Assembly: GCF_004010195.1 (NCBI RefSeq)
Contig: NC_057753.1
Coordinates: forward strand, 13,988,485 to 14,052,484
Length of the DNA: 64,000 nucleotides
Direction: 5' to 3'
Origin: Chiloscyllium plagiosum
Taxonomy: Eukaryota
The stretch's first letter is position 1, and the number at the start of each line of letters is the position of its first letter. The notes under the pieces were generated by a model. The model was not told the DNA's origin. It made no database searches and saw only the letters and a program-made list of their open reading frames with translations. Positions 3,001 to 33,500 of the stretch are shown piece after piece. The translations under genes were made by a program, and so were the position numbers.

Positions 3001-4183
3001 TTGGACTCATATCCAAGTTTGCAATACTGAATCAAGGATGTTGGACAGACCAGTATATCACCAATTTAGCGATTCCTCTTGTTTACTGGCAGGTAAATTT
3101 AACACAGACGTTGGAAGCAATTTCTGCATTTGTAACCCCAATTGGGTTATACCAATTTAAAGTGATATCTTTCGGAATGAAGAATGCACCGCCAGATTCC
3201 AAAGAATCATGAACAGAGTTGTAGCTGGGTTAGCAAAACGTGCAGTCGATTTGTACTACGTCGTGATCTTTAGTAAGTCCTGAAAAGATCACATGGTAAA
3301 TTTGGCAGAGAACTTTGAGTTACTACGAGAAGCAAAACTGGTAATAAATTTAAGCAAAACACAATCCACGAAAGCAGTGGTGGCGTTCTTGAGACATAAC
3401 GTCGGTAATGGAAGTTTGTCACCATAGAGTGCAAAGACGAAGGCCGTCGAGGAATTTCCACATTCAAGAAAGAGGTGCTTCCAGATTTGGCACTCAGTGG
3501 ATTCTATCGGAAGTTTGTTCCAAACTTCAGCCCTGCAGTGGCATTGTTCACCGATTTGCTGAACAAGAACACAATGTTTAGGTGGGCAGAACAATGCTGG
3601 GAGGCATTCGACCATTTGGAAGCAATATTAAACACCGCACCAGTTTTTGCGGCACCAAACTTTTCAAAACCTTTCAACATTGTCATCGACGCTGGTGACA
3701 TAAGCTTTGGAGCTGTACTGCTACAGGAAGTTGATGATCGGTTTGAACTGCCATTTGGTTACTTTTCAAAGAAACCTAACATCCACCGGAAGAAATGCTT
3801 TACTGTCTAAAAAGTACTATTGAGTTTGGTACTGGCCTTGCAACATTTTAATGTGTATGTCACAAACAATGTGCTGGAGAAGGTAGTGTCCAGGATCATA
3901 AATCTCTTGTATACTTGGAACACCTTGAAGACATGAACATGAGACTATTTTTCAGTTATGGTCATTTAATTTTCAAATTGTACATGTTGCGGATCATAAG
4001 AATGCTCTAACTAATAAAGCATAGATAAGATTCATGTCTAATCAATGTTTTATGCATACTTGGGAAAAAGTTGTATGAACTTCGATTAAAGTTACATGTA
4101 ATTCATGATATTCTGGGTCAGGAATAGAGAAAATAACAAGCCAACCTTTCATGTAACGGTTCTTTTTTTGGTCTGGGGAGAGG
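1..4183 (+). mobile_element. Decayed Gypsy LTR retrotransposon internal region (Gmr1-like, PR-INT-RT-RH order), 5' part outside window
   Basis: Gag-like PHFEKKDVETFFISF (~570) and YEVVKQVILIAYQFVSEACRQHFR (~735-805); CCHC knuckle CSHCGEVGHLNSQC (~1203-1244); integrase H2C2/IKPAPLLP remnants (~2170-2400); RT KQHPY and FGMKNAP (~2680-3190); RNase H/connection FYRKFVPNFS...DAGDISFGAVLLQ (3500-3730); purine tract GGGGAGAGG directly before the LTR. Many stops and frameshifts. Confidence 0.85.
2768..2892 (-). mobile_element. Short non-autonomous Penelope-related repeat nested in the Gypsy RT
   Basis: Diverged copy of the element at 18369 and 57883; minus strand reads CTGATGA-A-GGGC-TCTT-GCCC-AAAAC, a hammerhead-like core with GAAA mutated. 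Confidence 0.7.
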
Positions 4184-4923
4184 TGTTATGAAGATGGAGA
4201 TGTGCAATGTGCCTTTAAGAAATTTGAAAAGCCAGCAAGGACTGACAAAGCACAGAGACTTCTGATCAAACTAAGAATCGTTTGATTCTTGGTCCAAAGA
4301 AGTTGCTACAAGTGAATTGCCAAGAAACAAAAACATCTTTAAATTCGGCCAACCAGTTTAAATTATGCCCCAAGAAACCAAAATCGAAACAAATTTGAAT
4401 GCAGTATTTTGATAATACTAAAACTAACGAAACAATTCGATATTTTGGGTAAAAAAAGCAGACATTCTGAACGTTTATGGTAGAATTGCCAAGGACCAAC
4501 ATTTTGACTGCTAACTGAAGAACTCTCTGTAAGGTACCTGTCCATAAGAGGTTTGCAAGCACATCATTGAAACCGACCAAGAGAAAATCTACAGGTGAAA
4601 ATCTACAAAGGAGAATCGACAAAGCTGACTGGTTTTGAAAAAGCAATTTCGTTTTTGTGATTCTTAATCAGGATTTTTTTTTATATCAGACCAGTGTTGT
4701 AGAATGTGAGGTATGAATAGGGTTAGGAGAAAAAAGTTGTAAATAGTTGTTGATTTTAATATTCTCTGTTGGATGCAAAGAATAAAATTGTTAATTTTTA
4801 CTCTAAATAGTGATCTCTGGGATCGGTCTTTGACTCACAAACTTAAACAGATTACAGCATGAGGGAACCTTTTTCTGTGTGGCTGCTGTAAATTAACAAA
4901 GGAGTTTATCCCGTGTCGCAACA
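4184..4923 (+). mobile_element. Gypsy 3' LTR (unit A)
   Basis: Starts TGTTATG right after the polypurine tract, ends ...GCAACA, contains AATAAA (~4781). Confidence 0.8.
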
Positions 4924-5059
4924 ACAATACATAAAAGTTGTTGCTGCATAGAATTCGTCTGATTCTGTTCAGTCTTATACGTCTCATCATTATCATCTCT
5001 CAGAAGATTTTGTAGGTCTCTCCCAATCAGGGTGCAATTGTTCATGCTTCTCAGTGTGA

Positions 5060-5075
5060 TGGCGCCCTCTGGTGA
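5060..5075 (-). promoter_or_regulatory. Candidate CTCF-binding element just 3' of the psiV RSS relic
   Basis: Minus strand TCACCAGAGGGCGCCA matches the CTCF core consensus CCASYAGRKGGCRS except at the first base; ~27 bp from the nonamer at 5103-5111. Confidence 0.65.
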
Positions 5076-5102
5076 TCACTGGTAAGTGGAACTCTCAGGG
5101 TG

Positions 5103-5827
5103 GATTTTTGTATGAGATCCGCTCTATTTGTTAATTTCACTACAGTTCTGACTGGCACATAGACACATGATACTATAGGAGATGAGGATATTCCTAACTT
5201 GTGGTTTAGTTATGTTGGCAGTTTTGTTCGGCTGAGAGGAAAATATATTACTGATGCAATATTCCTTCTGCACACTGCTCCCAGTATGTCGACCCTGGAA
5301 CTGTGGATGCTGCTTGTACTACAATAAGTAATTTTACATAACATCTCTTCAAATCGCAGCTTGGGAGATGTTCTTTCCCCCGTGAACTGTCATTTCAGCA
5401 AATGGCTGTTCAATTGCAAACTGATGACTCCATTTCAACATATGGAAATTAGTTTACATAAAGCGAGAATCTGCGCCAAAATCAGATTGATCAACACAAT
5501 AGCCACATTCACTGTTGTTCGACTAACAATTCGAAATGCAACAATGAGTTCTGCTTCTGATATGGACATAGCTTTTGAGAACGGATACAATGCTGAGCAA
5601 CTGTGAATCACATTTCCACATGTTGATTCCGGTCTCAGTAGATCTGCAGTGATGTAAGTTCGCTGTCAGAGCAGAAATACAGATCCCTGCCACACTTTCT
5701 TGCTGATCCAATCAATGGCGAGATTAGCGTAGCGGCAGAGATCTCCCCAGGAACAAAACATAGCACGAGAGAAGGAGACGGTTGATATCTGAATAGCAGG
5801 AAATGCAAGCCGGGGGCAGGATACCAT
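5103..5827 (-). pseudogene. Antigen-receptor V pseudogene A (inverted)
   Basis: Minus-strand translation across frameshifts: WSHQFAIEQPFAEMTVHGGKNIS..SC...L*YKQ...VRNILISYSIMCLCASQ; nonamer ACAAAAATC (5111-5103); leader-like MVSCPRLAFPAIQISTVSFS from the ATG at 5827. Splice acceptor lost and RSS spacing abnormal. Confidence 0.75.
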
Positions 5828-7329
5828 GCAGTCTAAATTTGACGATGCGTTCGGTAGATCTTCAACGTACACGGAGCTGGCTGAGTGGAACTAATGATGG
5901 TTACTTTTCCAATTTGTGACCTGTTCTGTATACATGAACCAGATTGCCCCTCATGTTTCAATAATCTATTCCTTGCGTTGATGCTACAGGGTGTTGTAAC
6001 ATTAACCAAATGAAGTTTTAATTGGAGGAAATAACATTTTAGGACATAAAGGCCATTTCTACTGTAGTAGATTGGGGAATGAAGAATCGTCCAACAAGGG
6101 CAGAACATCAGAAAATATAACGTCCAGCCTTTCCACCATTTCTGCTCCACACATGGTTACCAGCAAGTATTCAATGCTCCAATTCCAGAACGTAAATAAT
6201 GAATTAAGCAAGAGCAAGACAACATGAGGGAATGTGCTTTTCAAGGGCAAATGGTGGTGTCGTAGTAATGTCACTGCTCCTTCAAATTAAGAAGCTCAGA
6301 CTAAAGTTTCGCAGGCAGAATGCCTGGCACAATGCAAATTCAGGCAGTAAAAATCTGAAATCAGCTAGCCCAAGTAGCGTTCGACGTGCAAGTCTAATGG
6401 GTTTGTTGTATCCTGACACCATTTAGAGGAAGAATGATGATAAACCTATATTGTGTGGCGTGCATTTGACTGCACATATAGCCAGTGATATTAACTCTCT
6501 TTTGCTCTCTGAGAAGTCTTTGCAAGAACTCTTTTCCAGATGAATACTGTCTCTCACAGCAACATCCTCAACTCATGACGGAATGAAAATAAAAAGAAAA
6601 GTTACCGAATGAAGAACCCTTCTAAATTTTGTTTAAGTTACAGACTGTATTTTAAAACATATCAGCTGTCACTGCAACGTACGTTTTGCCAAACATATGT
6701 CTGTAGCAAAGTGATGAAGGGTCACAGTTCACTAAGAGAAGACATTCTTCCTCGTCTCTGCTTTCCCTTGCGCCTTTTTTTCTGAAACTCTACATTCTAG
6801 ACCTAGATTCTTACATGAATGGAAGCATTCTCTAAGTATTTACTCTGACAATTCCGTAATGGTGATAGCCCCAATCCTATATGTTTGAATAAGGTGACGT
6901 CTCATTACACTGAACTGCTATCTGTACAGTTTAAAATCATTTTTCAGTCTCGGGATCATCCTAACGAATCCTCTCTCAATTGACTCCAATGAAACATTAC
7001 CCTTATTTAAATAAGAGGATCAACAATGCTCCCATAACACCAATTGTGATGCCTCTAGTGACCTGCACAGTTACATTGAAAATTTCCTGCCCTAAAACTT
7101 CAAGCCACTTGACATATTACCTGATTCAAGTAACCACTAACTGTCTGTGTTCCAGACACATGAACCCAAACGTCTCTTAGTTTTGCAAATTTCTGCACTT
7201 TCTGTCCAATTGAAAAAGAACACTGTTGTTTACTCTTCTTTCCAAAATGAATGTTTTCACACTATACTTCAAGTACTAATATATTGCCCACTTGCAAATC
7301 TATTAACTCTCTTCAACCAGTTGTTTTTC

Positions 7330-7790
7330 TCTCAGTTTGTGTTTCTACAATGTTGCATCATGTGTAAATTTGGCTACAATGCATTCACTTTCTTTCTCCA
7401 AGGAATGTATATTTGCATATTGCAAAAAAAAAGAAAAATTCAATCTCTGAATTCTGTTGCATCTCACTAGTTCCAGGAAGCCAGGCTGAAAAAGAACAAT
7501 TTTCCCCACTTGCGTTTTCCTGCCTATCAGCCAAATCTTCATCCACAGCAATGTTTCAATTGCAACACATTGAGTTCTCATTTTCTGACAAACCATTCTA
7601 AGGTACTTTGGCAAAAAAAATCCTGGTACTCCTAAACGACACATATACCTGATATCCACTAATCAGTCGATGTGCATTTGCCTCAAAACACTCTGAAAAA
7701 TTAGTCAGTGATAATTTCACATTCGTGAATCATCACCAACTTTCCAAATGTGCTGGCATACATTCCCTCAAAATCTGTTGCAACAATTTT
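7330..7790 (-). mobile_element. Ancient CR1-like LINE RT fragment, present in all three units (also ~15930-16370 and ~27110-27540)
   Basis: Degenerate RT remnants (VAKFTHDATL resembling ISKFADDTKL; LLWMKIWLIGRK resembling WIxNWLxxRKQ). Confidence 0.55.
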
Positions 7791-9806
7791 CCATATGGGA
7801 AACACAAGTAGAAATGGCTGCAAAAATTCAGCAGATCTGGCAACATCTATGGAAATAGAGCTAATATTGTGAGTCAGGTGACCCTCTGCAGAACAGAATA
7901 TTGGACTCAGAATGTTAACTCTTTCTGTTTTGCTGATTCACCGTGAACACAAAACAGGAAAAGGCTATGTTGAAAGTTTGGATTGAGTTTGCTTTTGAAC
8001 TTTGTTGAGTATTTCCTGTCAGAAAGTGATCGCCTGAAAAACAGGTTTATTCTACTTGCTGGTAAACGTTAGTAAAGAGTCTACAATCGCCCAGCCGCAA
8101 CAAAAACCTTTCACGTGAAGCAGCATCAATTAAAACCCAGTGAAATACGTATCGTGCTTATTATGAACTGTCAGATAGTCGGTTAAATTATTATGAATGT
8201 CAACACGTGGTTTTGTTTTGGTAGAGAAGCTCCCACACTTTATCATGTCATATCTACTGCTCATGAACTGGTATTCCTGCACAGCCTATCAATCAGTCCC
8301 AACTTCAGTGGCACTATATGAGGCAGTCAACTTATTAACGACACCACTGAGTTTAAATCATTATTACAACAGTGATCTTTTAGAGGCCATAATTCATTAC
8401 CTGCCCGACGTTCAAGTGTGTATGCACAGACACGTTAACGGGAATCTTTGGCACTCATAACATCAAACTATGGGCAGTTTCACTTCATTCTGGGCATCTC
8501 CTATATAGAAGCAATTGAATGGATAACATTGAGTTCAACTTCTACCCTTGGCCCTCAGATATCAGGAACTGGAGAATAAACGAACAGTGAGCAGGTGGCT
8601 GTCAGCTGCTAAGTATGTCAACAATTAACCAATCGGCAGAGACTCATGATTTTATTAAATGTTAACTCCATTCTTGAGTGTAACAATTGTAATGTCAGCT
8701 TCCATTATGCAAATTCACATCAACTGCGTCCAAACAGGGACGTTACTTTATTTTCAGTCTTTACAACTTCAGCTCTCAAAAGTGGTAACTTATTATAACA
8801 TCGACATACTTCTCCATCCAGGCATCCCTGACATCCTTTACATGTGTTGTCTGCATATTTTGAAAAAGATGAGTTACCAGATAATACCAGATCAGTTGTG
8901 CAATTGTAACTTTATGCAGGTTCGAAGATGTGCAATCAGCGATAATCAAAAAAAAAATCCTAAAAGTTATTCGAATACGTCAGCTGCACATTCATTGCAA
9001 ATAGATCATAAGAATCGGGATAAAACTCCAATAAGCTTGATTTACATTCCTAACTTGCTCACTTCCGAACTTCGTAACTGGCGATGTTATCAGAGCTGAG
9101 GATGTCTCGATTTTCTGTTTTCTTTGCCTGTTTAAAAAATTGGGGCAATTCTACCAACAGTGATCTGTGGATGCCTGTCAGAACAATATATTACTGAAAA
9201 CTGAGAGTGACAATGACAAGACTCAAGAGGGAGCATCGCACAAAACTACTCCACCTTCGCACAAATTGAACAGCTGAAAGGCTGTGCAGGGAGAAACATT
9301 GACCAGCAATTAACAAAGAGACTGCTTGCTCCTGTGAAACCGAAAAAAAACAATGAACGCGTTTTCCGATGTAAATTAATTCCACAGTGAGCAATTGGCA
9401 GATTAAATATGGTGGAGTTAATAGAACTCGCCTCTAACATACATTGACTATTGCCCATTTTTGTTTTGTTGCTGCTAACATGGAGGGAGAAGGGATAATG
9501 TTTCCCTCGTATGTCACGCATAGTTTATCAGACGACACCACTTTCTAAACTCAACTGACTAGTGCCAGTGAGTGAAAAAGGAATTTCAATTTCAACAAAT
9601 ATATTTTCTTCTTGGAAATGACATATTTCGGACCATTAAGTGGCCAAAATGCTCAGTTTCAGGTAAAATGTCTTTGCTTACTCATTTGATACTCTACTTA
9701 TTACAGTATCCCATTAATTTCTCTTTTCTGACATAGACACAGACTTATGGTTATTGACATCATCAAACTATCAGACTCGAGTCATTCTATCGCATAATCC
9801 TCAGGA

Positions 9807-9816
9807 AATGACATCA
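9807..9816 (+). promoter_or_regulatory. CRE-like decamer in V1 promoter
   Basis: AATGACATCA about 95 bp upstream of the leader ATG; the same position in V2 reads AGTGACATCA and in V3 AATGACATCA; resembles the TCR V-promoter decamer AGTGAYRTCA. Confidence 0.6.
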
Positions 9817-9909
9817 ATTGAACACAGCCAATGCTGTCAATTTTTACTTATCTCACGCTCTGCAATGTTGTGAGGTATTGGAACATCGCTAGCATCAGGA
9901 ACAACAGCG

Positions 9910-9955
9910 ATGAGACTCACCGTCCTCTCTCTAGTGTTGATAACATTTCTTGTTG
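9910..9955 (+). CDS. TCR V1 leader exon (L-PART1)
   Basis: ATG...MRLTVLSLVLITFLV-G|GTAAG: hydrophobic signal peptide, 46 nt, phase-1 donor. Confidence 0.92.
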
Positions 9956-10670
9956 GTAAGAACTGAAGTTTATAAGATGGTTTAGTGTTAGATAAATGCA
10001 TTTTTGAAGCAGAATGATCCAGAATATCCAAGCAGGTTGTGCACTTGGATGTGCATTTTTTGTTTCTTTCTTATCTTTCGGCCTGAGATAAAAGGATACA
10101 TGGAAAACGATTTTTGTGGACGATGCTCGAATTTCGAGAATTTAACAGCCAGAAAATAATATGTAAGCTTCTATTCCATTCCCTACTGGGCAGGAGACTA
10201 TAGAGTAATCAAACTGACGTCTTTACAGTGATCAAAAGATCTTAGGCTATGGAAGGGAATATTGCACTTGAGAAGGATTCCATATTGATACATTTAATTG
10301 AAAAACAATAGCGGCACAAGATGATCCAAAACAGACTTCTAAATAAATTTGTTTATCCGCAGCATGTCTAGAATCTGGCTGTTGTTACCACAAGGACTTT
10401 TTGAGACAATAGGAAAATCGATTTTTAGGCAAGTGGATAAAATGAGGGAAGTAGAAATGATTGGGGATATTTACAGATAGGATTACAGGGAGAAATAAGC
10501 ACGATGCTTTTTACTTTCAGCTATATGAAAATGAGTGTGACGTGCCAAATGGACTTATTGTTACTTTGAATTCGGTCTAAATTTCGTTTACACCGTGAAA
10601 TTCCATCTTCAGTTCAGTTTATTTGCATATTTCTTTACTGATTTCCGTATTCCATAACATTGTCTTCCAG

Positions 10671-10974
10671 ATTTGAGCGATGGAGATTCTGTCACTCAGC
10701 GGGAGCCCTATCTCACACAGACTGAGGGAGAAGATGTCACTTTAAACTGCACCTACACTGGAAGCCCTAATTATGTCTTCTGGTACTTTCAGTATCCAGG
10801 CAGACAGCTCGAGTTCGCAATCAGGATGTATACGAGTACTGATACTGAAACGAAGGCGGATTTCGTTCAGACCCGATTTTCTTCTGCCCTCCAGCATGCA
10901 GGGAAGTTGTACCAATTGACAATTTTCGACGTCCTTCTGTCTGACACCGCAGTATATTACTGTGCAATGACTCT
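10671..10974 (+). CDS. T-cell receptor alpha/delta-type V exon (V1), apparently functional
   Basis: Acceptor tgtcttccAG; in frame with the leader: DLSDGDSVTQREPYLTQTEGEDVTLNC...VFWYFQYPG...LTIFDVLLSDTAVYYCAMTL; Cys23, Trp41 and Cys104 present; no stops. Confidence 0.93.
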
Positions 10975-11013
10975 CACTGTGATGTGAACCAGCTGAAGCC
11001 TCGTACAATAACT
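10975..11013 (+). other. V1 recombination signal sequence (23-RSS)
   Basis: Heptamer CACTGTG (10975-10981), exactly 23-nt spacer, nonamer ACAATAACT (11005-11013). Confidence 0.92.
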
Positions 11014-11834
11014 ATCACAGGTTTCTGGGTCACAGATGCGGCATCTTCAGCGTTGTTCTTAACAGGGTTTCGTGGAACTGTGGTGCATAGCTGTGAGTGA
11101 AAAGTCCCGGAGGACAATCCAGACAAAAGACCATTTAAAATTGCTCTCACCAAATACTGATTCCGATTGGCGCTTCAATCATATGAGGTCCGAAGTCTTT
11201 GCTGTTTATTTGAGGTTCCCTGTAAGGTCCTCACTCATATTCATTGAAAATATAAACTCTGCAATCGGCTTGATACTAAAAATATCCACGTAACTCCGTT
11301 TTATAAGAAGAAAAAGAACAGCTAGCTTTTCGATGTGGAATGCCAGCATGCAATAGTTGCCAGGCGAGGTAATCCTTGGTCATTACAGTAAACTGATTGA
11401 ACACATATCAGTTTTAAAAATACACATATAAAGACTAAGAATCTACAATACAATAAAGTGAAAATGGGATATTTTCACCAGTTGATAGGAAGATCGCCAA
11501 CAGTTCATGACAATAATCTGAAAGAACAGGTTTCATTGGTCAAGAATCCAAACGAATATAAAAGCCGGTTGGATAATTAATATTTGTGCCATAGAACGTT
11601 CGACGCACATTTAGAAATCCGAATTAGTCAGATAACGTTATGCGTGAATAAAAGTAATTGTTTTGTTTTTCTGCACCTTTCCGTGGTGCGATTATGTTAA
11701 CTTTAAATATCATTGAACGATTGGAAAACAATGTCAAGTCAGACATTGAGGGAAGCTATTCTGTCCGCAAGTTTTTAATTTACAAAACCATGCGAATTTC
11801 CTAATAATGTTTTTGAATAATGTTCAGATTAAAT

Positions 11835-12170
11835 CATGGAGTCCCTACAGTGTGGATACTGGCTCCTTGTCCCATCCATTCCTCACCAACCCTCCAAAGA
11901 GAACACCACCCAGACGCGTTTCCCTACAAAGCTGCCCGATATTTGACAAACTAATGCACCTAACCTACACATCCCTGAACAATAACGGCAACTTCAAATG
12001 GCCATTTCACCTAACCTACACATCTATGGATTTTGGGAGGAAACCGCATTACCCAAGACTGGGTGAGAAAGTGCAACCTCTACACAGCCAATTGCCCGAG
12101 GTTGGAATGGAGCCCGGGTCCCTGGTGCTCTGAGGCAACAGTGCTAGACACTGAGCCACTGTGCCATTTG
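11835..12170 (-). mobile_element. Old HE1-type SINE, shared by all units (also ~20655-20990 and ~31335-31680)
   Basis: Diverged match to the young SINE at 23528 (ctacagtgtgga ... gagcccgggtccctggtgctctgaggcaacagtgct). Confidence 0.7.
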
Positions 12171-12505
12171 CTGAGAAGCAAGGATGGAAAAGACAAAACC
12201 TTCCTCAATGCCGCATCTATTAATCTCTTTTGTTAAATATTTAGATACACATCAAATCACAGCTTTTCAAGAATCGTACATGTTGCAGATCATAAGAATG
12301 TAATTGCAGTTGCGTTATTCATCTAACTGATGAAGCACAGATACGATTGGTGCCATTTGAATGTTTTATGTCTATGTGGGAAGAAGTTAATATGAACTGA
12401 GATTAAAATCACATGTATGTCATGACGTTACGGGTCAGGAGTAGAGAAAATACCCAAGCCATATTTCAATTGTAATGGTGTTTTTTGTGTAATTTCAGGG
12501 CGAGG

Positions 12506-13415
12506 TGTTATGAAGGTGTAGATGTGTGCTGTAATTTTAAGACAGTTGAAAAGGTAGCAAAGACTGCCAAAGCACAGAGACTGCTGAACAAAGTAAGAAT
12601 GTAACAGTCGGTCAAAACAAATAGCTGCGGATGAATTTCCATGAAACAAAATCAAATTCAAATTCGGCCAATCATTTTCAATTCTGCTCCAAGACACCAA
12701 AGTGGAATCAATTCTGAACGCTGGATTTTGATAATATTAATGCCAAATAAGCGATCCGGTGTTATGGGGTAGAAAACCGGACATTCTGAACGGATAATAG
12801 GAGAATTGCCAAGGACCAACATATGGGCTGCTAGCTGAAGAGCTCTCTGAAAGATATCTGCCCATAAGCCGTTTGCACAGTACAAAAATGAAACTGACCG
12901 AGAGAAGACATACAGATGAAAATCTGCAAAGGAGAATCGACGAAACTGACTGGTTTTGAAACGTCATTGTTTTCTTTGTAAACTTTAATCGGGATTATTT
13001 TTATCAGACAGGTATTGTAGAGTGGGAGGTATAAGCATGGTTAAGAAAAACACATGCGTAAATAGTTGTTGGCTTTATTATTCTCTGTCGGACTTAAAAA
13101 TAAAGTTTTTAATGTTTACTTTAAATTGTGTTCTCTGGGATCGGTCTTTGCCTCTCAAATTCTGACAGATTACAGCACAAGGGGAACATTTTAGAGTGGG
13201 AGGTATAAGCATGGTTAAGAGAAACACATGCGTAAATAGTTGTTGGCTTTATTATTCTCTGTTGGACTTAAAAATAAAGTTTTTAATGTTTACTTTAAAT
13301 TGTGTTCTCTGGGATCGGTCTTTGCCTCTCAAATTCTGACAGATTACAGCACAAGGGGAACATTTCCTGTCTGGGTAGTTTAAATTAGCAGGGGAGATTA
13401 CCCCGTGTCACAACA
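12506..13415 (+). mobile_element. Gypsy LTR copy (unit B), preceded by pol 3' end and PPT remnant
   Basis: TGTTATGAAG...TCACAACA; homologous to 4184-4923 with the same flanks on both sides. Confidence 0.8.
13018..13365. repeat. 174-bp tandem duplication inside LTR B
   Basis: tagagtgggaggtataagc starts at 13018 and at 13192; copies nearly identical. Confidence 0.9.
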
Positions 13416-13586
13416 ACAATATTCAAAACTTGTTGCTTCGTGAGTAGAACTCACTAATATAAACTAAGTATGCAAGGAAATGTCGTCTGTTTCTGTTCAG
13501 TCTTATGGTCTCATCATTGTCATCTCTCAGAACATTTTGTGGGTCTCTCCTAGTCAGGGTGCAATTGTCCATGCTTCCCAGTGTGA

Positions 13587-13602
13587 TGGCGCCTTCTGGT
13601 GA
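13587..13602 (-). promoter_or_regulatory. CTCF-like element, unit B (one extra mismatch)
   Basis: Minus strand TCACCAGAAGGCGCCA, ~24 bp beyond the nonamer at 13627-13635. Confidence 0.45.
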
Positions 13603-13626
13603 TCACTAACTTGAACTTGAAGGATG

Positions 13627-18626: not shown

Positions 18627-18718
18627 ATTGAACAAGCCAATGCTGGCAGTGTTTTATTGCCTGACACTCTGCAATGTTGTGAAGTATTGAAACATCGCTA
18701 GCATCAGGAGCAGCAGTG

Positions 18719-19799: not shown

Positions 19800-19838
19800 C
19801 ACAGTGACGCGAACCAGCTGAAGCCTCGTACAATAACT
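19800..19838 (+). other. V2 23-RSS
   Basis: Consensus heptamer CACAGTG, 23-nt spacer, nonamer ACAATAACT. Confidence 0.95.
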
Positions 19839-22726: not shown

Positions 22727-23451
22727 TGTTATGAATGTATAGAAGCGTACTGTACCTTTAAGCGAGTTGAAAAGCTGGCAAGGACTGACAAAGCACAAAC
22801 ACTTTTCAACAAAGTAAGAAAGTAACAGTTGGTCGAAACAAGTAGCTACAGATGAATTGCCATGAAACAAAAACTAACTGAATTCGACCAATCAGTTTAT
22901 ACTATGCTCCAAGATACCAAAGTGGTATAAAATTTGAATGTAGTATTTTGATAATATTAAACCAATGAGACGATCCGATGTTTTGGCGTAGAAAACTGAA
23001 CATTCTGAACGGTTAGTGGGAGAATTGCCAAGGACCAACATATGGACTGCGAGCTGAAGAGCTCTTTGGAAAGTACCAGTCCATAAGAGGTTTGCACAGC
23101 ACAACATCGAAAACGATCTACAGATGCAAATCTACAAAGGCGTATTGACAAAGCTGACTGGTTTTGAAACGTGATTTTTTTTTGTAAAGCTTAATTGGGA
23201 TTTTTAAGATCAGACCATTATTGTAGAGTGGGAGGTATAAATAAGGTTAAGAGAAAATAAAAGGGTGTAAATTCTTGTTGGCTTTAATATTCTCTGTTGG
23301 ACTTAAAGAGTAAAGTTTTTAATTTTTACATTAAATATTGATCCCTGGGATCGATTTTTGCCCCTCAAAGTTTGACAGATTACAGCACGAGGGGAACCAT
23401 TTCTGTGTGGCTAGTTTAACTTGGCAAAGGAGCTTACCCCGTGTAGGAACA
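22727..23451 (+). mobile_element. Gypsy LTR copy (unit C)
   Basis: GGGAGAGG-TGTTATGAA ... GGAACA; homologous to LTR A and LTR B with shared flanks. Confidence 0.8.
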
Positions 23452-23527
23452 ACAATACAAATAAACTTGTTGCAGGAATGAGTAGAACTCGCTAACACAA
23501 ACGAAGTGCGCAAGGAAAACGCTTCAC

Positions 23528-23846
23528 GGGCGGCACGGTGGCCTAGTGGTTAGCACTGCTGCCTCACAGCGCCAGAGACCTGGCTTCAATTCCCGCCTCA
23601 GGCAACTGACTGTGTGGAGTTTGCACGTTCTCCCCGTGTCTGCGTGGGTTTCCTCCGGGTGCTCCGGTTTCCTCCCACTGTCCAAAGATGTGCAGGTCAG
23701 GTGAATTGGCCATGCTAAATTGCCTGTAGTGTTAGGTAAGGGGTAAATGTAGGGGTATGGGTGGGTTGCGCTTCGGCGGCTCGGTGTGGACTTGTTGGGC
23801 CGAAGGGCCTGTTTCCACACTGTAAGTAATCTAATCTAATCAAAAA
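23528..23846 (+). mobile_element. Young full-length HE1-type SINE (unit C only)
   Basis: GGGCGGCACGGTGGCCTAGTGGTTAGCAC (A box), B-box-like TTCAATTCCC, (TAATC)n tail. Confidence 0.9.
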
Positions 23847-23982
23847 ATTTCTGTTCAGTTTTGTGCGTCTCATCATTATCATCTCAGAAGATTTTTGGGT
23901 TTCTCGCAGTCAGGGTGCAATTGCTCAGGATTCTCAATGTGATGGCTCCTTCTAGTGATCACTAACTGGAACTCTCAGGATG

Positions 23983-25341
23983 GATCTTTTTACGAGATTT
24001 TGACTCCATTTATTCATTTCACTACAGTGCTGACTAGCACATAGGTACGTGACACAGTAGGTGATGAGGATGTTACTGACATTTAGTTTAGTGATCTTGT
24101 CAGTTTAAGATCCTGAGAGGAAAACAGATGACTGATGCGGTTTTCTTTCGGCACACTGTTCCTAACTAGTCAAAAGATGAACTGTAGAGGTTGCCCATAT
24201 TATAACACGTAAGGTTTGCATCACTTTTCTTCAAATTGCAGCTTGAGAAGATATTATTCCATCTTCAACTGTCATTTCAGTAAACGGCTGTTCAATTGTA
24301 TATTGTTGGCTCCATTTCAACACATGGAAAGGAGCAAAGGAAGCGAGAATCAGCGCCAAATTCAGATTGATCAACACAATCGTCACATTAACTGTTTTTC
24401 GATCAAAATATTACTTGATTAGGAACAATTCTGTTCTGATTAGGACATAGTTTTGTGAATGGGCACAATGCTGAGGAATGGCAAAAGGCAATTCCGCATG
24501 TTGAAACCTGTCTCCGTACCTCTGCAGTGTTGGAAATTCGTTGTCAGAGCCGAATGCTTTCTCTTATTGGTCAGAGTATTGAATACAGACGTTGGGAAGT
24601 CATGTTATGCTTGTACAAGACATTGCTTAGGCCACTGCTGAAATATTGCGGGCTATTCTGGCCTCCTTCCTATCGGAAAGATGTTGTGAAACATGAAAGG
24701 TTCAGAAAAGGTTAACAAGGGTGTTGCCAGGGTTGGAGGATTTGAACTATGGGGAGAGGCTGAACAGGCTGGGGCTGTTTTCCCCGGAGCGTCGGAGGCT
24801 AAGGGGTGACCTTATAGTGGTTTACAAAATTATGAGGGGCATGGATAGGATAAATAGACAAACTCTTTTCGCTGGGTTGGCGAAGTCCAGAACTATAGGG
24901 CATAGGTTTAGGGTGAGAGGGGAAATATATAAAACGGACATAAGGGGTAACTTATTCACGCAGAGGGTGGTACATGTATGGATTGAGCTGCCAGAGGAAG
25001 TGTTGGAGGCTGGTACAATTGCAACATTTAAAAGGCATTTAGATGGATGTATGAATAGGAAGGGTTTGGTGGGATATGGGACGAGTGTTGGCACGTGGTA
25101 CAAGATTGGGTTGGGATATCTGATTGGCCTTGACGGGTTAGACCGAAAGGTCTGTTTCCATGCTGTTTCTATGACTCTATGATTCTATAAACACAGATCG
25201 CTGCCACATTGCCTTGCGGATCCAATCAACAGCAAAATTCGCGTAGCGCCAAACATCTCTCCAAGAACAAAACTTGGCCAAAGCGAAGGAGACAGCTGAA
25301 AGGCGAATACCAGTAAATGGAAGCTGTGGCGGGGATTCCAT
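23983..25341 (-). pseudogene. Antigen-receptor V pseudogene C (inverted; CR1 inserted in its intron)
   Basis: WSQQYTIEQPFTEMTVEDG...SCNLKKSDANL...KLNVSNILITYCVTYLCASQ (YLCAS at 24047-24033); leader-like MESPPQLPFTGIRLSAVSFAL from 25341; nonamer and CTCF-like site (23943-23958) further decayed. Confidence 0.78.
24556..25187 (+). mobile_element. 5'-truncated CR1/HER1-type LINE
   Basis: ORF2 C-terminus LPGLEDLNYGERLNRLGLFSPERRRLRGDLI...; tail ctatgactctatgattcta; absent from units A and B. Confidence 0.92.
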
Positions 25342-25786
25342 GCAGTCTAAATTTGATGATGTGTCCAATGAATCTCTGATATACATAGTTGAGTGGAACC
25401 AATGATTGTTATGTTTCCAAATTGTGATCTGTTATTTGTAGACGAACAAGATTAGCCCATATGTTTCAATAATCTATTTATTCAGTAAAAAGCTACAGGG
25501 TGTCGTAATATTAACCAGATCGAGGTTCAATCATTGGAAATACCATTTTAGAACATTAAAGTCCATGCAGTCTAAATTTGATGATGAGTCCAATGAATCT
25601 CTGATATACATAGTTGAGTGGAACCAATGATTGTTATGTTTCCGAATTGTGATCTGTTATTTGTAGACGAACAAGATTACCCCATATGTTTCAATAATCT
25701 ATTTATTCAGTAAAAAGCTACAGGGTGTCGTAATATTAACCAGATCGAGGTTCAATCATTGGAAATACCATTTTAGAACATTAAAG
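25337..25786. repeat. 225-bp tandem duplication over the psiV-C start codon and promoter
   Basis: tccatgcagtctaaatttgatgatg at 25337 and at 25562; copies near-identical. Confidence 0.9.
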
Positions 25787-28700
25787 CTATTTCTGCTGTA
25801 CGAGATTTTGGAACGAAGAATCGTCCAGCAGGGACAGAGCAGCAGAAAATATAATATCCGACCAGTCCACCGTTTCTGCTTTATACATGTATACCAGCAA
25901 GTATTCAATATTATAATTGCAATGCGTTAATAATTAATTAAGCAATCGCAAAACAATATGAGGGCATGTACATTTCAAGCGCAAATGATGTGTCATAGTA
26001 ATGTCACTGCTCTTCAGATTTAAGAAGATCAGACTGAAGTTCCATGGCAGAATTCCTGGCACAATGCAACTTCAGTTAGCAAAAATCTGAAATCAACTAG
26101 CCCAAGTAGCGGTCGACGTGAAAGTGGCACCATCTAATGGAAGAAGGTTGCCAAAATTATCTGGTGTGGCGTGCATTTGACTCCACACATTGTCAGTGAT
26201 GTTGACTGTCTTTTTCTCTCTCTGAGAATACTTTGCAAGATTAATACTGTCTTTCACAACGATATCCTCAACTCATGACGGAATGAAAATTTAAAAACAG
26301 TTAAACAATGAAGGACCATTATGATTTTAAATTTTGTTTAAGCTACAGACTGTATTTTAATACAATTTAGCTGTCACTGTTAATGGAATTTTGCCGAAAT
26401 ATCTATCTGTGGCAAAGTGCTGAAGAGATAGAGCTCACAGAGAGAATAGATTCTTACTCATCTCTGCCCTAACTGGCGCCTTTTATTCTGAAACACTACC
26501 TTCTAGTCCTAAACCCACATGAATGGAAGCATTGTTTCAGTATTTACCCTTCCAATCCTTAATGGCAACCGACCCAGTCCAAGATGTTTCAAGAAGGTGA
26601 ACTTGCATTCCGCTGAGCTGCTACCTGCAGAGTTCAAAATCTGTTTTTTTTTTTGTTTGCACGAAAGTCTCTTCAGTCTCAGGGTAATCCTAACGAATCT
26701 TCTCTGAACTGACTTTAATGAAGCGCTGCCTTAATATAGATAAGTGGATCAAAAATATTTCCGTAACGCCAAATGTGATACCTCTCGTGTCATGTACAGT
26801 TGCAGTGAGAATTCCCAACTCGAAACCTTCAAATCTCTTGACATGGGGCGAACGTTCCCTCCGCCTTCTGAATACCGGATTCACGTGAGCATTGTCTGTG
26901 TGTCGTGCACATGTACCAAATGTTTTATTTGTATTGCAACATTCTGCACTTTCTGCCCATTTGAAACAAAAGCACTATTATTTACTCGTCTTTGCAAAAT
27001 GAACATTTTCACATGTTTTTCACACTACAGTCCAAATACTAATATACCGCCCACTTGCAAATGCTATTAACTATCCTAAACCAGTTGTTTTCTTTTCTCA
27101 GTTTGCGTTTCTGGTATTTTTCCATTATTTGCAAATTTGGCTGCAGTGCATTCCTTTCCTTTCTCCAAGGTATGAATGTTTGTGCATTGTAAAAAAAGTT
27201 GTCATCTAATCATTGATCCCTGTGGGACCCCACTAGTTCCAGGAAGCCAGGCTAAATAACAACTATTTTCACAACTCTCTTCTTCCTGCCTGTCAGCCAA
27301 TTCTTCATCCATAGCAATGCTTCACTTCCAACACATTGGGTGCTTATTTTCTGAGGTACTTTGTCAAAGATCTACTGGTACTCCAAAACGATACATATAC
27401 CTGTTATTCTCTACCCAGTGGAATTGTGATGACCTCAAAATACTCTGAAAGATTAGTCAATGATAATTTCACATTTGTGAATAGTCACCGACTTTTCAAA
27501 TGTACTGGCATACGTTCCTTGAAAATTTATTACAACATTTTTCCATACTTGAAACACAAGAAGAAATTGCTACAGAAATTCAGCAGATCTGTCAGCATCA
27601 ATGGAAAGAGAACTAATATTGCGAGTCAAGTGACCCTCTGCAGAACAGAATGTTGAACTCAGAATGTTAACTCTTTTTGTTTTGCTTATTCACCATGAAC
27701 ACAAAACGGGAAAAAGCTTTGCTGAAAGTTTAGTTTGAGTTTACTTTTGAACTTTGTTGAGTATTTTCTGTCAGAAATTGTACGCCAGAAAACAGATTCC
27801 TTCTACTTGCTGGTAAACATTAGTAACGAGACTGCAATCGCCCCGTCACATCAAATCATTTCACGTGAAGCAGCATCAATTAAAAGTCAGTGAAATAGGC
27901 GTCGTGTTTATTGTAAACTGTCAGATAGGTGCTTAAATTATTATGAATGTCAACACGTGGTTTTGTTTTGGCAGAAAATCTCCCACAGTTTATCAATGCA
28001 TATCTACTGCTCATAAGCCGCCACTCCTGCACGGCCTGTCAATCAGTTCCAACTTCCGTGATACTATATGAAGCAGTCAACTTATTAACCACATCACTGA
28101 CTTCAAATCATCATTACAGCACTGATTTTTAGAGGCCATCATACTTTACCTGCCCAACCTTTAAGTGTCTTTAGACAGACACCTTAACGGGAATCTTTGG
28201 CACTCATAACAGCATACAATGGGCACTTTCACTTCATTCTGTGCACCTGCTAGACAGAAAAATTGAACGAAAAACACTGAGTTCAATTTCTGATCTGAGA
28301 TCTCTGATGTCAGGAAATGGATAATAAATGAACGGCGAGCCAATGACTGTCAGCTGCTAACTCTGTCAACAATTAACCGATCGGCAGAAATGCATGATGT
28401 TACTAGATGTTACCTCCATTCTTGAGTGTAACAATTGCCATGTTAGTTTGCTTTATGCAAATTCACGTCAACTACCTCCAAACATGGTTGTGACTTTACA
28501 TTCATTCTTTACAACTTCAGTTCTCATAACTGGTACAAAACCTACGCACTACTCCATGTAGACATCCGTGACATCGTTTACATCTGCTATCTGTATTTTG
28601 AAAAATATGAGTTACCATATAATGACAGAGCATAATCAAAATCAAGTGAAGTTGTGCAATTGTACATTTCTGCAGGTGGAAGAGGTTCAAACAGTGATAA

Positions 28701-29683
28701 GGTTTCAAATAAAATGTGGAGGCCAATCGGAAAAGTTACTTGAAGATGGCTGCTGCACATTCATTGCAACTATGTCGTCAGATTCGGGATAAAGCCTCGA
28801 TAATCTTGATGTACATTACTAACATTCTCACTTCTGAACTACGTAATTGGTGATGTTATTAGAGCTGAGGATATCCACGACTTTTTGTTAACATTGACTG
28901 TTTAAAAAGTAGGGACAATTTTACCAACAGTGAACTGTGGATGCCTGACAGAGCAAAATATTACTGAAAACTGAGAGTCACAATGACAGGACTCAAGAGC
29001 GAACATCGCACAAATCTACCGCCAACTTGGAATCAAGTAAACAGCTGAAGCCCTGCGGAAGGAGAAACATTGACCAGATTTTAACAAGCGATTGTTCGTT
29101 CCTATCAGCCAAAAACAAGAGTGAAATTTCTGATGCAAATTAATTCCACAGTGAGCAATTGGCAGATTAAATGTCGTGGCGTTATTAACGTTCCACCCTA
29201 ACACACGCTGCCAATTGCCCCTGTTCGCTTCTTTGACGCTGCAAACACAGAGAGAGTAGGGATAATCTTTCCTCATATGTCATATATAGAAGCTTATCAG
29301 ACGTCACCACTCTCTAAACTCATCTGACTTGTGCTAGTCAGTGAAAAAGGAACTTCCTATTTCAACAAATATATTTATTTCATGAAAACGACATATTTCA
29401 GACCACTAAGTGGCCAAAAAAGCTTAGTTTCAGATCAAGCTGTCATCGTTTACTCAATTGATAATTTACTCATTCCAATGCCCCATTAATGTTTCTCTTC
29501 TCTGACACAGGCATAGATTTATTGTTATCGACATCATCAGACTACCAGACTCGAGTCATTCTATCTCGTAATCCTCAGGAAATGACATCAATTGAATACA
29601 GCTAATGCTGTCAGTTTTTACTTGCCTCATGCTTTGCAATTTTGTCAGGTATTGGAACATTGCTAGCATCAGGAGCAGCAGCA

Positions 29684-30478
29684 ATGAACCTCTCTGCCCT
29701 CTCTCTGGTGTGGATAACATTTTTTGTTGGTATGAATTGAACTTTTAAAAGAAGATTTAGTGTTAGATGAATGCATTTTTGAAGCATCTATAAAATTAAT
29801 TTTAAAAAAAACTCAGTGCAGAAAGATGATCCAAAACAGATTTCTAAATAAATTTGTTTACATGCAGCATATCGAGAAACTGGCTGCTGTTACTGCAAGG
29901 AGTATTATTGAAACCGGGAAAGACGGATTTTAAAGAAAGTGGATTAAAATGGGGAAGTGGAAATGGTTGGAGATATCTACAGAGAGAATGAGAGGGAGAA
30001 ATAAGCAGGATAACTATGTTTTTTAGCTGCATGGACATGAGCCTGACGTGCTGAATGGACTTTTTGTTACTCTCAGTCCTGTCTACGTTTTGTTTACACC
30101 GTGAAATTCCATCGTCAATTCAGTTTATTTCCATATTTTATCACTAATTTCTGCGTTCCGTGACTTTGTATTCTAGATCAGAGCGATGGAGGTTCTGTCA
30201 CACAGCGGGAGCCCTACCTCACACCAAAGGCAGGAGAAGATGTCACTTTAAACTACAACTACACGGGAAGTCCTGATACCGTTCTGGTACCATCAGTATC
30301 AAGGCAGACAGCCCGATTTCGCAATCTGGAGGTCCACGATTACTGATGCTGAAACAAAGGCGGATTTCGGTCGCACCCGGTTTTCTGCCGCCCTCCAGCA
30401 TACAGATAAGTTGTACCAATTGACAATTTCGGACATCCTTCTATCTGACACCGCACTATATTATGGTGCAACGAGTCT
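29684..30478 (+). pseudogene. TCR alpha/delta-type V pseudogene (V3)
   Basis: Leader 29684-29729 MNLSALSLVWITFFV-G|GT; V exon 30177-30478 (302 nt, 2-nt deletion before WY); Cys23 changed to Tyr (TAC); Cys104 changed to Gly (TAT TAT GGT); intron shortened to 447 nt. Confidence 0.92.
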
Positions 30479-30517
30479 CACAGTGATGGGAACCAGCTGA
30501 TGCATCTTACAATAACT
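30479..30517 (+). other. V3 23-RSS (intact)
   Basis: CACAGTG + 23 nt + ACAATAACT. Confidence 0.92.
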
Positions 30518-33500
30518 ATGGCAACTTTCTGGGTCACCGATGCTGCATCTTCAGTGCCGTTTTTAATTGTGCTTCATAAAGTGGAACTGTGGTGCATAGC
30601 TACGAGTGAAAAGTCCCGGAGGGAATCGAGAAAAAAAGACTGTTTTAAATTGTTCTCAGCAAGTACTGATTCTGATTGCCGCTTTCACCGTGTGAGGACA
30701 GAAGTGTTTGCTGTTTATATGAGATTCCCTATAAATTCCTCACTCATACTCATTAAAAATACAAACTCTGCAACCGGCTTGGTACTATCAATATCCGTGT
30801 AACGCTGATTTAGAATTTTAAAAAAAATACATTTTCGATGTGGAATTCCAGAATGTAATAGCTGCCCGGTGAGGAAATCTGAGGCAATTACAGTTAACTG
30901 ATTGGACGCCGCACAGTTTTAAAAATACACATATTAAAGACCAAGATTCTACAATAGAATAAAGTAAAAAGGGGATATTTTGATGACGTGATAGAAGATG
31001 GTTAACAGAGATGCTCAAGACAATAATCTAAAAGGACAGATTTCCTTGGTCAAGATGCCCAATGAATATAAAAGCCGGTTTGATTAATAATATTTCTGCC
31101 ATAGAATATTAGAAGCACATTTAAAATCCACGCTCATCAGATAACGTTATGTGCAAATTTTATTTTCTGATTCTTTACATGCGATCATATTGCAGTTAAA
31201 TATTAATGAACGACTGGAAAACAATGACAGGTCAGACAGTTAGGGAAACTATTCTATCCCCAATATTTTAATTAGCAAAACCGTGTGAATTTCCTAATAA
31301 AGTATTTGAATAATGTATCCGGTATAAATTACAGAATATCGACAGTCTGGAAACAGGTTCTTTGACCCAACAAGTCCATACCGACCCTCCGAAGAGTATG
31401 CCACCCAGACCAATATCCCTACGATATTGTCCTATATTTAACCAACTAATGCACCGAACCGACACATACCTGAACACAATGGGCAACTTAGCATACCCAG
31501 TTCACCTCCGCCACACGTCTTAGGATTCTGAGAGGAAATCCGATCACGCAGAGGAAAACCACGCAGCTGTGGGAGAGGAAAACCACGCAACCTCTACATA
31601 GACTTCCGCCCGAGGCTGGAATCAATGACAGTTCACTGGCGCTGTGAGACAGCACTGCTAACAACTGAGGCATTATGCCACGTGCAGAGGAGGAAAGGTG
31701 GAAAAGACAAAACCTTTCTCCAACACCGCATCTATTAATCTCTTCAAGTCACAGCTTTTCAAGAATGCATTTCCAAAGGGCGAATTTAGATGCAGGCTGC
31801 ACACCTCCCCTGACCTCTATTTCACCCGAGCTGACCCGCACCAACTTGTGTGTGCAGTCCTTTGGTTCCTGTCACTGTGTCTGTCAACCGACGGTAGCAC
31901 ACTAATGATGAAGTACCGATAATTTTTAAATGGTCCAGAGATGCAGAAAATCGAGCATGAATGCCAGTTCTCCTCACTCTATTCCACTATGTAGGGATAC
32001 CGTTCACTAATAATATCTGAGTTTCCCGGGTCCTCATGGTAAAATTGAAAATATGTGCATTGTATTTGTTCAAGTAGCTGAAATTAATAATCACCCAATT
32101 TCCTTCAAATTGTATCACTTTATTCAGAGCCTGTGAGACCAAGTCTGCACAATTAATGCCTACAGAAACAGAAAAGCAAATAACATGAATACGGTGACAA
32201 CAAACAATGTCAACAAGTTAAAGCCTGGATTCTAATACATTGAACACAAAGGAGTGATTGCTATAGTCACATTATCTAGGTGCTAACATTTTACAACTCA
32301 CGAACTTACAAGTTAAGAGAGTTACACCACTATGGAAAGAGTAAATATCAAAAATCTGAACGTTTGCAGAGCAAATGGTGGATTTGAACAAAAAGAGTTG
32401 ATGATGAATTATTTCAGCTGAGAGATATTAAACATCATATTTGATTGGATCATTTCAGAAAGTGTTTCCAGGCAAAACATCCAGTCATCTGACAGCTCCT
32501 TCGTTCCTCAGCTCATGACGTCCAGGTGCTGATCAATATCATATTACGTCAAAATCAAGTGGTCCAGAGCCCGGATCTCGCATTTTGAAAAGGATATGAG
32601 TACCTCCGCACAATTGCAAGTGCAGACACGCAAAAGGCCGGCTCACCACCATTTTCACCTGGGCAGTTAGGTTGGTCAAATCCTCACTGTTGCCGACTTG
32701 ATGCCACTGCACAGCCAAATTGTTAAGACCATCAAGAATTAAGTCAGAGAAAGGGCAACAGCAGAATACAACATAAGCTCACAAAGTCAGTGTGAAGACT
32801 AAGAGGTGGTAAACGTGAATCAGTCATTATCTGCTGCCTGATACAAGTAAAAGCAAATGGAGAAAAGAGATCAAGAAGCTACAAGTCATTCAAGCCTAAA
32901 GTATCACCACAGTCAAAACTGTCACCGGGGTATTGAGATTCCAGCTCAGTTTCCCCCCCCACCCATTTCATAGCAAAATTACTTTGTGTACACTCCCACT
33001 CATATCATAGTAAAATTACTTTGTGTGCCTCCATCTGGAGCTAACGGGGGGCTTCCGTTTCATGACGTTTAGAGGTTCAGCTGATCAAATCATACCATTG
33101 TTCATAATACTTTACCTGCAGCATATTCATCTTAACTACAGAAACTTCATCCATGCACTTCGTCAATTTGGGTCAAAGGGATAGGTGAAAGTGGACTTTG
33201 CGAAATTCAAACTTAGAGATATCTCTACTGATGTAGATGTATTCCATTCATTTACCTGCACTTAGAAATCTAAATATTTAAATTCTCTTCTGTCATGGAA
33301 AATCTTGCTTTGGCTCAATATTTGTATCATTACCTCTGATGCTAACATTAGATTCCTGATGTCCTAAATAACATCAACTGTCCTTCAAAAATGCTCTCAT
33401 AGCTGAATGTAATTATCGACAAACACGTAAAATATTTTAGAAATGTTCCCCCTCAGTTACTATGAGAGCATGCAGAATTAGCTGAAGTCTTACCTCAAGT

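Follow-up and report, generated by a model that had tools for sequence, protein, structure and literature searches.

Triplicated V units in a shark TCR alpha/delta-type array, very probably with dead V genes as passengers

Described V arrays and the shark locus

Copying in blocks is an ordinary way for V loci of this kind to grow. In the sections of the bovine TRA/TRD account drawn on here, dead V genes were copied along with live ones (a ‘collateral’ expansion of pseudogenes) in tandem multi-V blocks, gene content differs between copies and matching pseudogenes share one lesion; the bovine authors infer death before duplication (PMC4289303). The shark array described below, which lies within a 64-kb window (the whole stretch of DNA that was analysed), resembles the bovine one in its tandem blocks, its varying gene content and its common lesions, but bovine units span 15-157 kb with 2-17 V, whereas those of the shark span 8-10 kb and hold 3-4 V, in mixed orientation. 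The cited part of the channel catfish TRAD description offers a similar case, with repeats of 5-12 kb holding 1-3 TRAV, for which unequal crossover was proposed; catfish repeats are, however, ~96% identical with all V in one direction, as against ~80% and mixed direction in the shark (PMC8656973).

V genes in both orientations are likewise known from Atlantic salmon TRA/TRD, in which, according to the portion of the source used, an inverted block expresses 13 of its 14 functional V at comparable frequency; salmon has two large blocks, whereas in the shark array orientation flips every few kilobases (PMC8559430). Closer to hand, TCR V models of the epaulette shark lie on the plus strand in 15 and the minus strand in nine of 24 cases (the TCR-alpha C model is on the minus strand, so 15/24 V are opposite C), and those of the great white shark in 13 and eight of 21, with one divergent pair 3.5 kb apart (PMC12227049 Table S1). 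Like our array, these TCR alpha/delta arrays thus carry V on both strands; the table, as far as consulted, holds gene models only and describes no duplicated cassette. Mixed strand orientation would seem usual in shark TRA/TRD V arrays, such that no special mechanism need be invoked here.

Hitch-hiking and mixed orientation are both already in print, and neither is new. We found no published description of this particular cassette, although subscription papers and bioRxiv supplements, which fell outside the scope of the search, may cover shark V orientation. The word ‘orientation’ is not used in the main text of PMC12227049, neither ‘orientation’ nor ‘inversion’ in PMC10322711, and the elephant shark supplement gave no match for orientation terms.

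The window yielded neither J nor D nor C segments (of 16 J-like motifs, none has an RSS; no exact J-type 12-RSS is present), and the locus is therefore assigned by V family only. NAR-TCR and Ig minicluster cassettes repeat V-D-J with each unit; this identity was rejected, as the same search places no D or J inside the units. By eye, V1-V3 (listed below) resemble aV6/aV7 of nurse shark TCR-alpha, and psiB aV10, in the portion of the source data to PMC5931798 Table 1 that was compared; a first motif search of that table returned nothing, and one aV10 motif later gave three matches against 0.01 expected. The 39.5-kb remnant likewise resembles expressed nurse shark V families (aV6/aV7, aV10 and aV1/aV2 compared), whereas no psiA family match appears in the TCR-alpha rows inspected (PMC5931798).

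Three units and eleven V segments

Self-BLAST and three-way alignment reveal three colinear tandem units of 8-10 kb each, sharing non-coding DNA as well as V segments, with gap-free pairwise identities of 80.4, 79.6 and 79.2%; the ‘3x cassette’ of the sequence-only reading is borne out to this extent. Together with alignment of the junctions, they give the following extents (no strand assigned).

3970..12274, U1, with a shorter right end and without psiC
12264..22420, U2, right end approximate
22421..32688, U3, left end approximate

From left to right, a unit can carry psiA on the minus strand, psiB and V on the plus strand and psiC on the minus strand, for an array total of 11 V segments, two intact and nine broken. 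V itself occurs once per unit, intact in U1 and U2 and broken in U3, and is accompanied in each by two or three pseudogenes. Beyond a 500-N gap, the window also holds a GPCR-like ORF.

5103..5621, minus, psiA1, V pseudogene with leader, V exon and broken RSS
8736..9247, plus, psiB1, V pseudogene, nurse shark aV10-like, Cys104 codon TGA, start codon lost
9910..11013, plus, V1, intact TRA/TRD-type V with leader, intron, V exon at 10670-10974 and 23-RSS at 10975 (Pfam V-set E 9e-15)
13627..14151, minus, psiA2, V pseudogene
17304..17844, plus, psiB2, V pseudogene, Cys104 TGA
18719..19838, plus, V2, intact TRA/TRD-type V with V exon at 19495-19799 and 23-RSS at 19800 (Pfam V-set E 5e-15)
21179..21499, minus, psiC2, decayed V pseudogene without the YYC end, with an RSS remnant
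23985..24499, minus, psiA3, V pseudogene
28484..29017, plus, psiB3, V pseudogene, Cys104 TGA
29684..30517, plus, V3, broken paralogue with intact RSS
31841..32174, minus, psiC3, V pseudogene (tblastn E 3e-6 to a mammalian TRAV-type protein)

V1 and V2 have a leader exon, a GT-AG intron and an open V-set exon with Cys23, Trp41 and Cys104, followed by a CACTGTG or CACAGTG heptamer, a 23-nt spacer and ACAATAACT; their named database matches are TCR-alpha V. The live V per unit that had been claimed on the plus strand does correspond in all three units to a V of TRA/TRD type that has a leader, GT/AG sites and an RSS with a 23-nt spacer, but is live in only two of them, V3 having a 2-nt frameshift, Cys23 changed to Tyr, Cys104 changed to Gly and a 288-bp deletion in the intron, and so lacking an open frame with both cysteines. 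A query of sequencing runs with the V2 stretch gave no RNA run among the matches listed, and the ESM Atlas returned generic V-set clusters only.

The minus-strand pseudogene claimed for each unit is indeed there, as psiA, by tblastn, V-profile scoring and alignment. Against an intact horn shark relative, the three copies give E values of 9.6e-16, 2.8e-13 and 1.5e-5 (tblastn), and with frameshift-aware V-profile scoring they reach 41.6, 51.4 and 43.4 bits, as against a null maximum of 24.0 (five null windows); V-set homology covers the whole exon, with a leader and an RSS remnant. Horn shark and C. punctatum have intact members of the family, in the form of unnamed gene models (Heterodontus francisci, Chiloscyllium punctatum). 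One search on psiA gave eight matches, including three shark V models, three repeat proteins and one protein without an Ig match in Pfam. As for the worry that V-set HMMs might fail to recognise the minus-strand segments, Pfam V-set detected none of eight stop-free psiA exon fragments, and recognition comes only through the relatives or through frameshift-aware scoring. Pfam on the psiA upstream pieces yielded irrelevant weak matches in two of three only, PDB sequence searches gave no match for the psiA1 3' piece and a best E of 0.64 for the psiA2 5' piece, and a word-indexed search that used the intact domain of the psiA family produced no candidate.

For psiB and psiC, the assignment as pseudogenes relies on V homology together with an RSS remnant where one is expected, protein-profile scores being weak: 20.5 and 18.2 bits for psiB, inside the null range (maximum 24.0; psiB1 is not among the scores), and 23.9 bits for psiC2, at the null maximum. 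Pfam found no family in the psiC3 piece. The psiB heptamer has an offset of 14 nt, identical to that of V1-V3. All three pseudogene families are distinct from that of V.

The pairing of one dead and one live gene ‘head-to-head’, as the sequence-only reading had it, does not hold up, as psiB sits between psiA and V in all three units and psiC lies past V in U2 and U3. The proposed spacing of 4.1-4.4 kb fits one ATG-to-ATG distance (4289 bp) and falls short of the other two (4568 and 5185 bp, in the sequence as it stands), and RSS-to-RSS facing of adjacent units fails at U2/U3, where the RSS that first faces V2 is that of psiC and not that of psiA. Where RSSs face each other, either both are of the 23-type or they are broken.

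Shared lesions, private insertions and a proposed history

The lesions common to corresponding pseudogenes bear on timing. In all three psiA the AG before the exon start is missing (the start being placed from the relatives' gene models), as is GT at the likely donor; from Lys to Cys104 there are 92-93 codons as against 97-98 in four relatives, with four FR2 residues gone; and the RSS is broken, a heptamer-like site lying 28-29 nt from the nonamer in psiA1 and psiA2, and psiA3 having no nonamer. The missing acceptor and distorted RSS had been noted from the letters alone; the TGA of psiB, which reads TAT TAC TGA at Cys104 in all three copies, is a further shared lesion. That the pseudogenes were dead before duplication, and hitch-hiked, is well supported by these comparisons of the copies.

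Divergence among units is 0.235-0.251 for the psiA exon, as against 0.138-0.162 for the V exon and ~0.20 for the whole unit. Variable sites of the psiA 3' exon are spread evenly over codon positions (23/55, 24/55, 21/56), in a test of low power (V exon 16/101, 24/100, 27/100; psiA 5' part 8/36, 4/35, 11/34). Between V1 and V2, dN is 0.131 and dS 0.236; V3 differs from both by dN 0.157 and dS 0.287-0.288, which is consistent with a later death of V3. A dN below dS shows constraint on V, and says nothing of what fixed the copies. V2 is closest to C. punctatum GCC19778.1 (89 of 101 residues; V1 shares 77 and V3 68) and groups with the C. punctatum V with support of 88/92, from which we infer that the duplications are likely older than the split between the two species.

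Mobile elements mark both the unit ends and later events.

1..4925, plus, decayed Gypsy-like LTR retrotransposon (Pfam RT_RNaseH_2 E 4e-15 for 3481-3807); the ‘Gypsy’ label and LTR ends are our own reading
18367..18561, no strand assigned, U2-only insertion just upstream of V2, presumably Penelope-type, with a 15-bp target duplication
21833..22132, minus, U2-only SINE-like insertion
23528..23847, plus, U3-only SINE-like insertion
24554..25185, plus, U3-only LINE 3' fragment in the psiA3 promoter, which we take to be CR1-like

Every unit begins on its left with the 3' end and LTR of the retrotransposon, with LTR copies near 12498-13421 and 22719-23458. The junctions enter the element at 3916 and 3970, only 54 bp apart, so that a single junction event, later duplicated, likely accounts for both. 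The four unit-specific insertions were found near the positions first reported, each restricted to one unit, but do not order the history as had been hoped: single-unit insertions postdate the duplications and nothing more, and the units lie at nearly equal distances from one another (p = 0.194, 0.203 and 0.205; JC 0.225-0.239), such that the order of duplication is not recoverable from them. On its left side U2 is nearer to U3, on its right side nearer to U1 (z 3.2, permutation p 0.020-0.047); given a non-significant omnibus mosaic test (p 0.14 and 0.28) and the closeness of U1 to U3 near 7400-8300, unequal crossover is weakly supported.

Synthesising these observations, we consider it highly probable that a block of a shark V array of TCR alpha/delta type has been duplicated in tandem to give three copies, with dead V genes as passengers. 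The ancestral block would likely have begun with the retrotransposon end, followed by minus-strand psiA, plus-strand psiB and V, an old SINE and minus-strand psiC; of its four V genes only V would have worked, the others likely being dead by then, and the whole block would have been copied twice, probably via unequal crossing over. A later deletion of ~1.1 kb over the U1/U2 junction likely took psiC out of U1, four mobile elements then entered single units, and the death of V3 would have followed the duplications. Judged by their sequence, V1 and V2 would serve RAG-mediated V-J (or V-D-J) joining through their 23-RSS.

Read in this way, the array offers a clean shark example of V repertoire growth, in which two duplications yielded seven or eight more V segments and one net intact gene. 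It also improves the annotation of a poorly mapped locus, with two V genes that are intact and with three families of pseudogenes, of which other sharks have one in intact form, and its mixing of V orientation on a kilobase scale could allow deletional and inversional joining to be compared once the J side is known.

Orientation and alternative readings

The opposite recombination modes ascribed to psiA and V follow logically only if the psiA ancestor and V were both alive in their present orientations; nor, in our analysis, would they be special to this cassette, as TCR V appear on both strands in the shark tables (PMC12227049 Table S1). A tentative extension, which we think somewhat unlikely, is that the psiB-V block, and not psiA, is the flipped piece, that kilobase-scale inversions reshuffle shark TRA/TRD arrays, and that the triplication amplified an inverted, inversion-joining V. 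Reversing psiB-V gives an all-minus row of C, B, V and A in reading order, with V directly before A, and this same-strand order is fused in the C. punctatum gene model P0017, whose first V belongs to a sister subfamily. Inverted repeats at the supposed breakpoints exceeded the null in none of the three units; one direct match was seen, in U1 only. Were this reading true, one J cluster would be reached by some near neighbours through deletion and by others through inversion.

An orphan V array far from the J cluster, in which V1 and V2 also go unused, is improbable. The lack of J or C in 64 kb, the broken state of 9/11 V segments and the GPCR-like ORF beyond the gap would fit it, as would the shark TCR-type V exons that, in the part of PMC12227049 consulted, also occur between IgH clusters. 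V1 and V2 have, however, kept their frames, splice sites, both cysteines and RSSs over ~0.23 substitutions/site, with a framework dN/dS of ~0.42, and shark V arrays have megabase spans (PMC12227049 Table S1).

We give little credence to retention of the dead genes for a purpose, be it as conversion donors, regulatory sites or RSS decoys. The psiA exon diverges as fast as spacer or faster and U1 has lost psiC, although the psiB exon (0.167-0.186) and DNA near V are slightly less diverged (0.16-0.19 as against 0.21-0.22). Families as distant as psiA, psiB and psiC are from V are too far apart for ordinary conversion. A CTCF-like motif beyond the psiA1 RSS was set aside as chance-level, as 28 of 100 shuffles match and it was scored in one unit only. 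AID does diversify shark TCR-alpha, in the portion of PMC5931798 cited.

Gene conversion could also have produced the common lesions, by spreading them among pseudogenes that died after the duplications, and the closest unit pair does shift along the alignment (chi-square p 0.014, for five blocks picked after viewing the data); it would, however, have had to spread several separate lesions in three genes and yet leave copies 17-25% apart, which makes it a very slim prospect beside passengers that were dead when copied. That the assembler laid allelic haplotypes in tandem is scarcely credible, despite four short tandem repeats (178-554 bp, 96.6-98.7% identical) and one 500-N gap that resemble local assembly overlaps, as units at 79-80% identity are too divergent for alleles (the feared collapse to haplotypes would not be expected at ~20% difference), carry private insertions and private indels, and include a V2 with its own closest relative in another species.

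As a separate observation, 12-spacer RSS-like sites lie at 6328 and at 26060.

Unit architecture and the plus-strand V genes

By self-BLAST, the candidate TCR alpha/delta (TRA/TRD)-type V region resolves into three colinear units, which bears out the triplication proposed by the sequence-only reading. The units and their principal V genes are as follows:

3970-12274, unit U1, colinear with U2 and U3
12264 to about 22420, unit U2, colinear with U1 and U3
about 22421-32688, unit U3, colinear with U1 and U2
9910-11013, plus strand, V1: 15-codon leader, GT/AG sites, open V-set exon, 23-spacer RSS (recombination signal sequence)
18719-19838, plus strand, V2: 15-codon leader, GT/AG sites, open V-set exon, 23-spacer RSS
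29684-30517, plus strand, V3: leader, splice sites and RSS kept, coding exon broken

With 79.2-80.4% gap-free identity and JC distances of 0.225-0.239 (7782 shared sites), these units are old paralogues, not alleles. The picture of a two-gene unit, an inverted dead V head-to-head with a live one, was incomplete: the order is psiA (minus), psiB (plus), V (plus), psiC (minus), with psiB separating psiA from V in every unit and psiC following V in U2 and U3, giving 11 segments of which two are intact. The psiA-to-V ATG distances are 4289, 4568 and 5185 bp. For the most part the units differ less from one another around psiB and V (0.16-0.20; 8000-11800 and its copies) than in the left half (0.21-0.22), possibly through later conversion or constraint.

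A ‘live V’ in every unit holds for V1 and V2, whose frames are open (Pfam V-set E 9e-15 and 5e-15), but not for V3, which has a 2-nt frameshift and has lost both cysteines (Cys23 to Tyr, Cys104 to Gly). V1 and V2 differ by dN 0.131 and dS 0.236; since the dN/dS ratio of V3 against either is similar, albeit on small counts, V3 is likely to have stayed functional for some while after the duplications. By eye, the family resembles aV6/aV7 TCR-alpha clones among selected nurse shark rows (PMC5931798 source data). The best-matching named proteins are from Chiloscyllium punctatum, and V2 groups with GCC19778.1 of that species (89/101 residues the same; support 88/92 in an 18-row tree). Among the matches listed, 14 of 24 runs contained at least half of the sampled words of the V2 stretch, these coming from four studies of one organism, one possibly the source of the assembly. 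An insertion at 18367-18561, with a 15-bp target duplication, lies ~160 bp upstream of the V2 start codon, where it might influence the V2 promoter.

Probable passenger pseudogenes

Failure of V-set HMMs on the minus-strand segments, which the sequence-only reading had held would count against it, is literally what Pfam returned (0/8 stop-free psiA exon pieces), yet the V identity of psiA was recovered through relatives. A full-library search with one piece gave, among eight matches, three shark gene models that are clearly V-set and align to every psiA from promoter through RSS flank. With a frameshift-aware profile, which contains those relatives and is thus not fully independent, the three psiA copies scored 41.6, 51.4 and 43.4 bits along their full length, against a null maximum of 24.0 in one reversed and four shuffled windows.

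All three psiA copies share an exon start without AG, a likely donor without GT, and the loss of four FR2 residues; a heptamer-like site sits 28-29 nt from the nonamer, itself lost in U3. Exon divergence between copies (0.235-0.251) is not below that of the spacer. Together, the common lesions and this divergence favour the earlier proposal, and death before duplication is the simplest reading. Gene models from horn shark and C. punctatum (P0012, P0014, P0016, P0017) show the psiA family in intact form; no match was found among selected nurse shark TCR-alpha rows (PMC5931798 source data), and it may represent a delta-used or unsampled V family.

psiB retains a leader, carries TGA at Cys104 in 3/3 copies, and has an RSS remnant whose offset equals that in V. 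Its protein-profile score falls within the null range; psiB is similar to nurse shark aV10 in part of the PMC5931798 source data, and one aV10 motif matches at these three places and no others (0.01 matches expected). psiC was matched by tblastn (E 3e-6) and cross-matches psiB (E 1.4e-5).

Orientation and joining

Had psiA and V both been alive in their present orientations, joining would have required deletion for one and inversion for the other. None of 16 J-like motifs in the window has an RSS. As to units facing RSS-to-RSS, the signals that face each other are either 23-type or broken. RSS joining pairs 12- with 23-spacer types (the 12/23 rule), so these signals would not be expected to join with one another. 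Sites resembling a 12-spacer RSS at 6328 and 26060 (plus strand), in the psiA-psiB spacer of U1 and U3, are probably chance.

Opposite joining modes would not be peculiar to this cassette. The 24 TCR V rows for epaulette shark, not counting Ig-TCRV rows and the VC model, divide into 15 on the plus strand and 9 on the minus strand, the latter shared by the TCR-alpha C model; the 21 for great white shark, not counting NARTCR, Ig and multi-domain rows, divide into 13 plus and 8 minus and include a divergent pair 3.5 kb apart (PMC12227049 Table S1). For an inverted block in Atlantic salmon, part of PMC8559430 gives 13/14 functional V as expressed. In one gene model each from horn shark (P0012) and C. 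punctatum (P0017), the psiA family and a V next to it lie on one strand, so the psiB-V block, rather than psiA, may have been inverted; breakpoint repeats were sought for this block, and none was found.

History of the duplications and neighbouring features

The cassette is real, was in part misdescribed, and is ordinary in mechanism, best explained by tandem copying of a block with dead V genes as probable passengers. A NAR-TCR or Ig-type V-D-J cassette was rejected because no J turned up in the units. The array works like, and structurally belongs with, bovine TRA/TRD, where part of PMC4289303 describes homology-unit replication, ‘collateral’ pseudogene expansion and common lesions read as pre-duplication death, and the channel catfish TRAD units of 5-12 kb (PMC8656973, in part). 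Selection for the live V may have driven the copying. No published description of this cassette was found in the literature searched, Ott et al. 2021 lying outside that search.

Four insertions of tentative class are each private to one unit, as first noticed; they therefore postdate the duplications and do not give their order, contrary to what had been proposed. A retrotransposon end and an old SINE, present in all three units, predate the duplications. The two unit junctions fall no more than 54 bp apart in the retrotransposon (3916 and 3970), an arrangement which suggests that a single junction was copied by unequal crossover, after which a deletion of about 1.1 kb at short microhomology would have removed psiC from U1. 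Such a history predicts that U2 resembles U3 on the left and U1 on the right; a directional test, of a pattern seen beforehand, gave z 3.2 (p 0.020-0.047; 1428 sites) and an omnibus test p 0.14-0.28 (2114 sites), so that the mosaic evidence for this history is weak.

Outside the units, 39478-41090 (plus strand) holds a further V pseudogene, by eye like aV1/aV2 in part of the nurse shark data (PMC5931798 source data), interrupted by a LINE-like insertion and by a near-identical repeat of 554 bp (profile 49.9 bits; Pfam V-set E 0.014). A second old duplication of about 70-75% identity spans 56381-63081 (59224-60999 against 61521-63081, and nearby pieces), in which no V match above null was found. 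Four short tandem repeats (13014-13365, 25337-25786, 39631-40734 and 47417-47801; 96.6-98.7% identity) look far younger than the units and are likely to be assembly overlaps. Beyond a 500-N gap (44561-45060), the minus strand at 51058-51981 carries a 307-codon single-exon ORF resembling a seven-transmembrane receptor.
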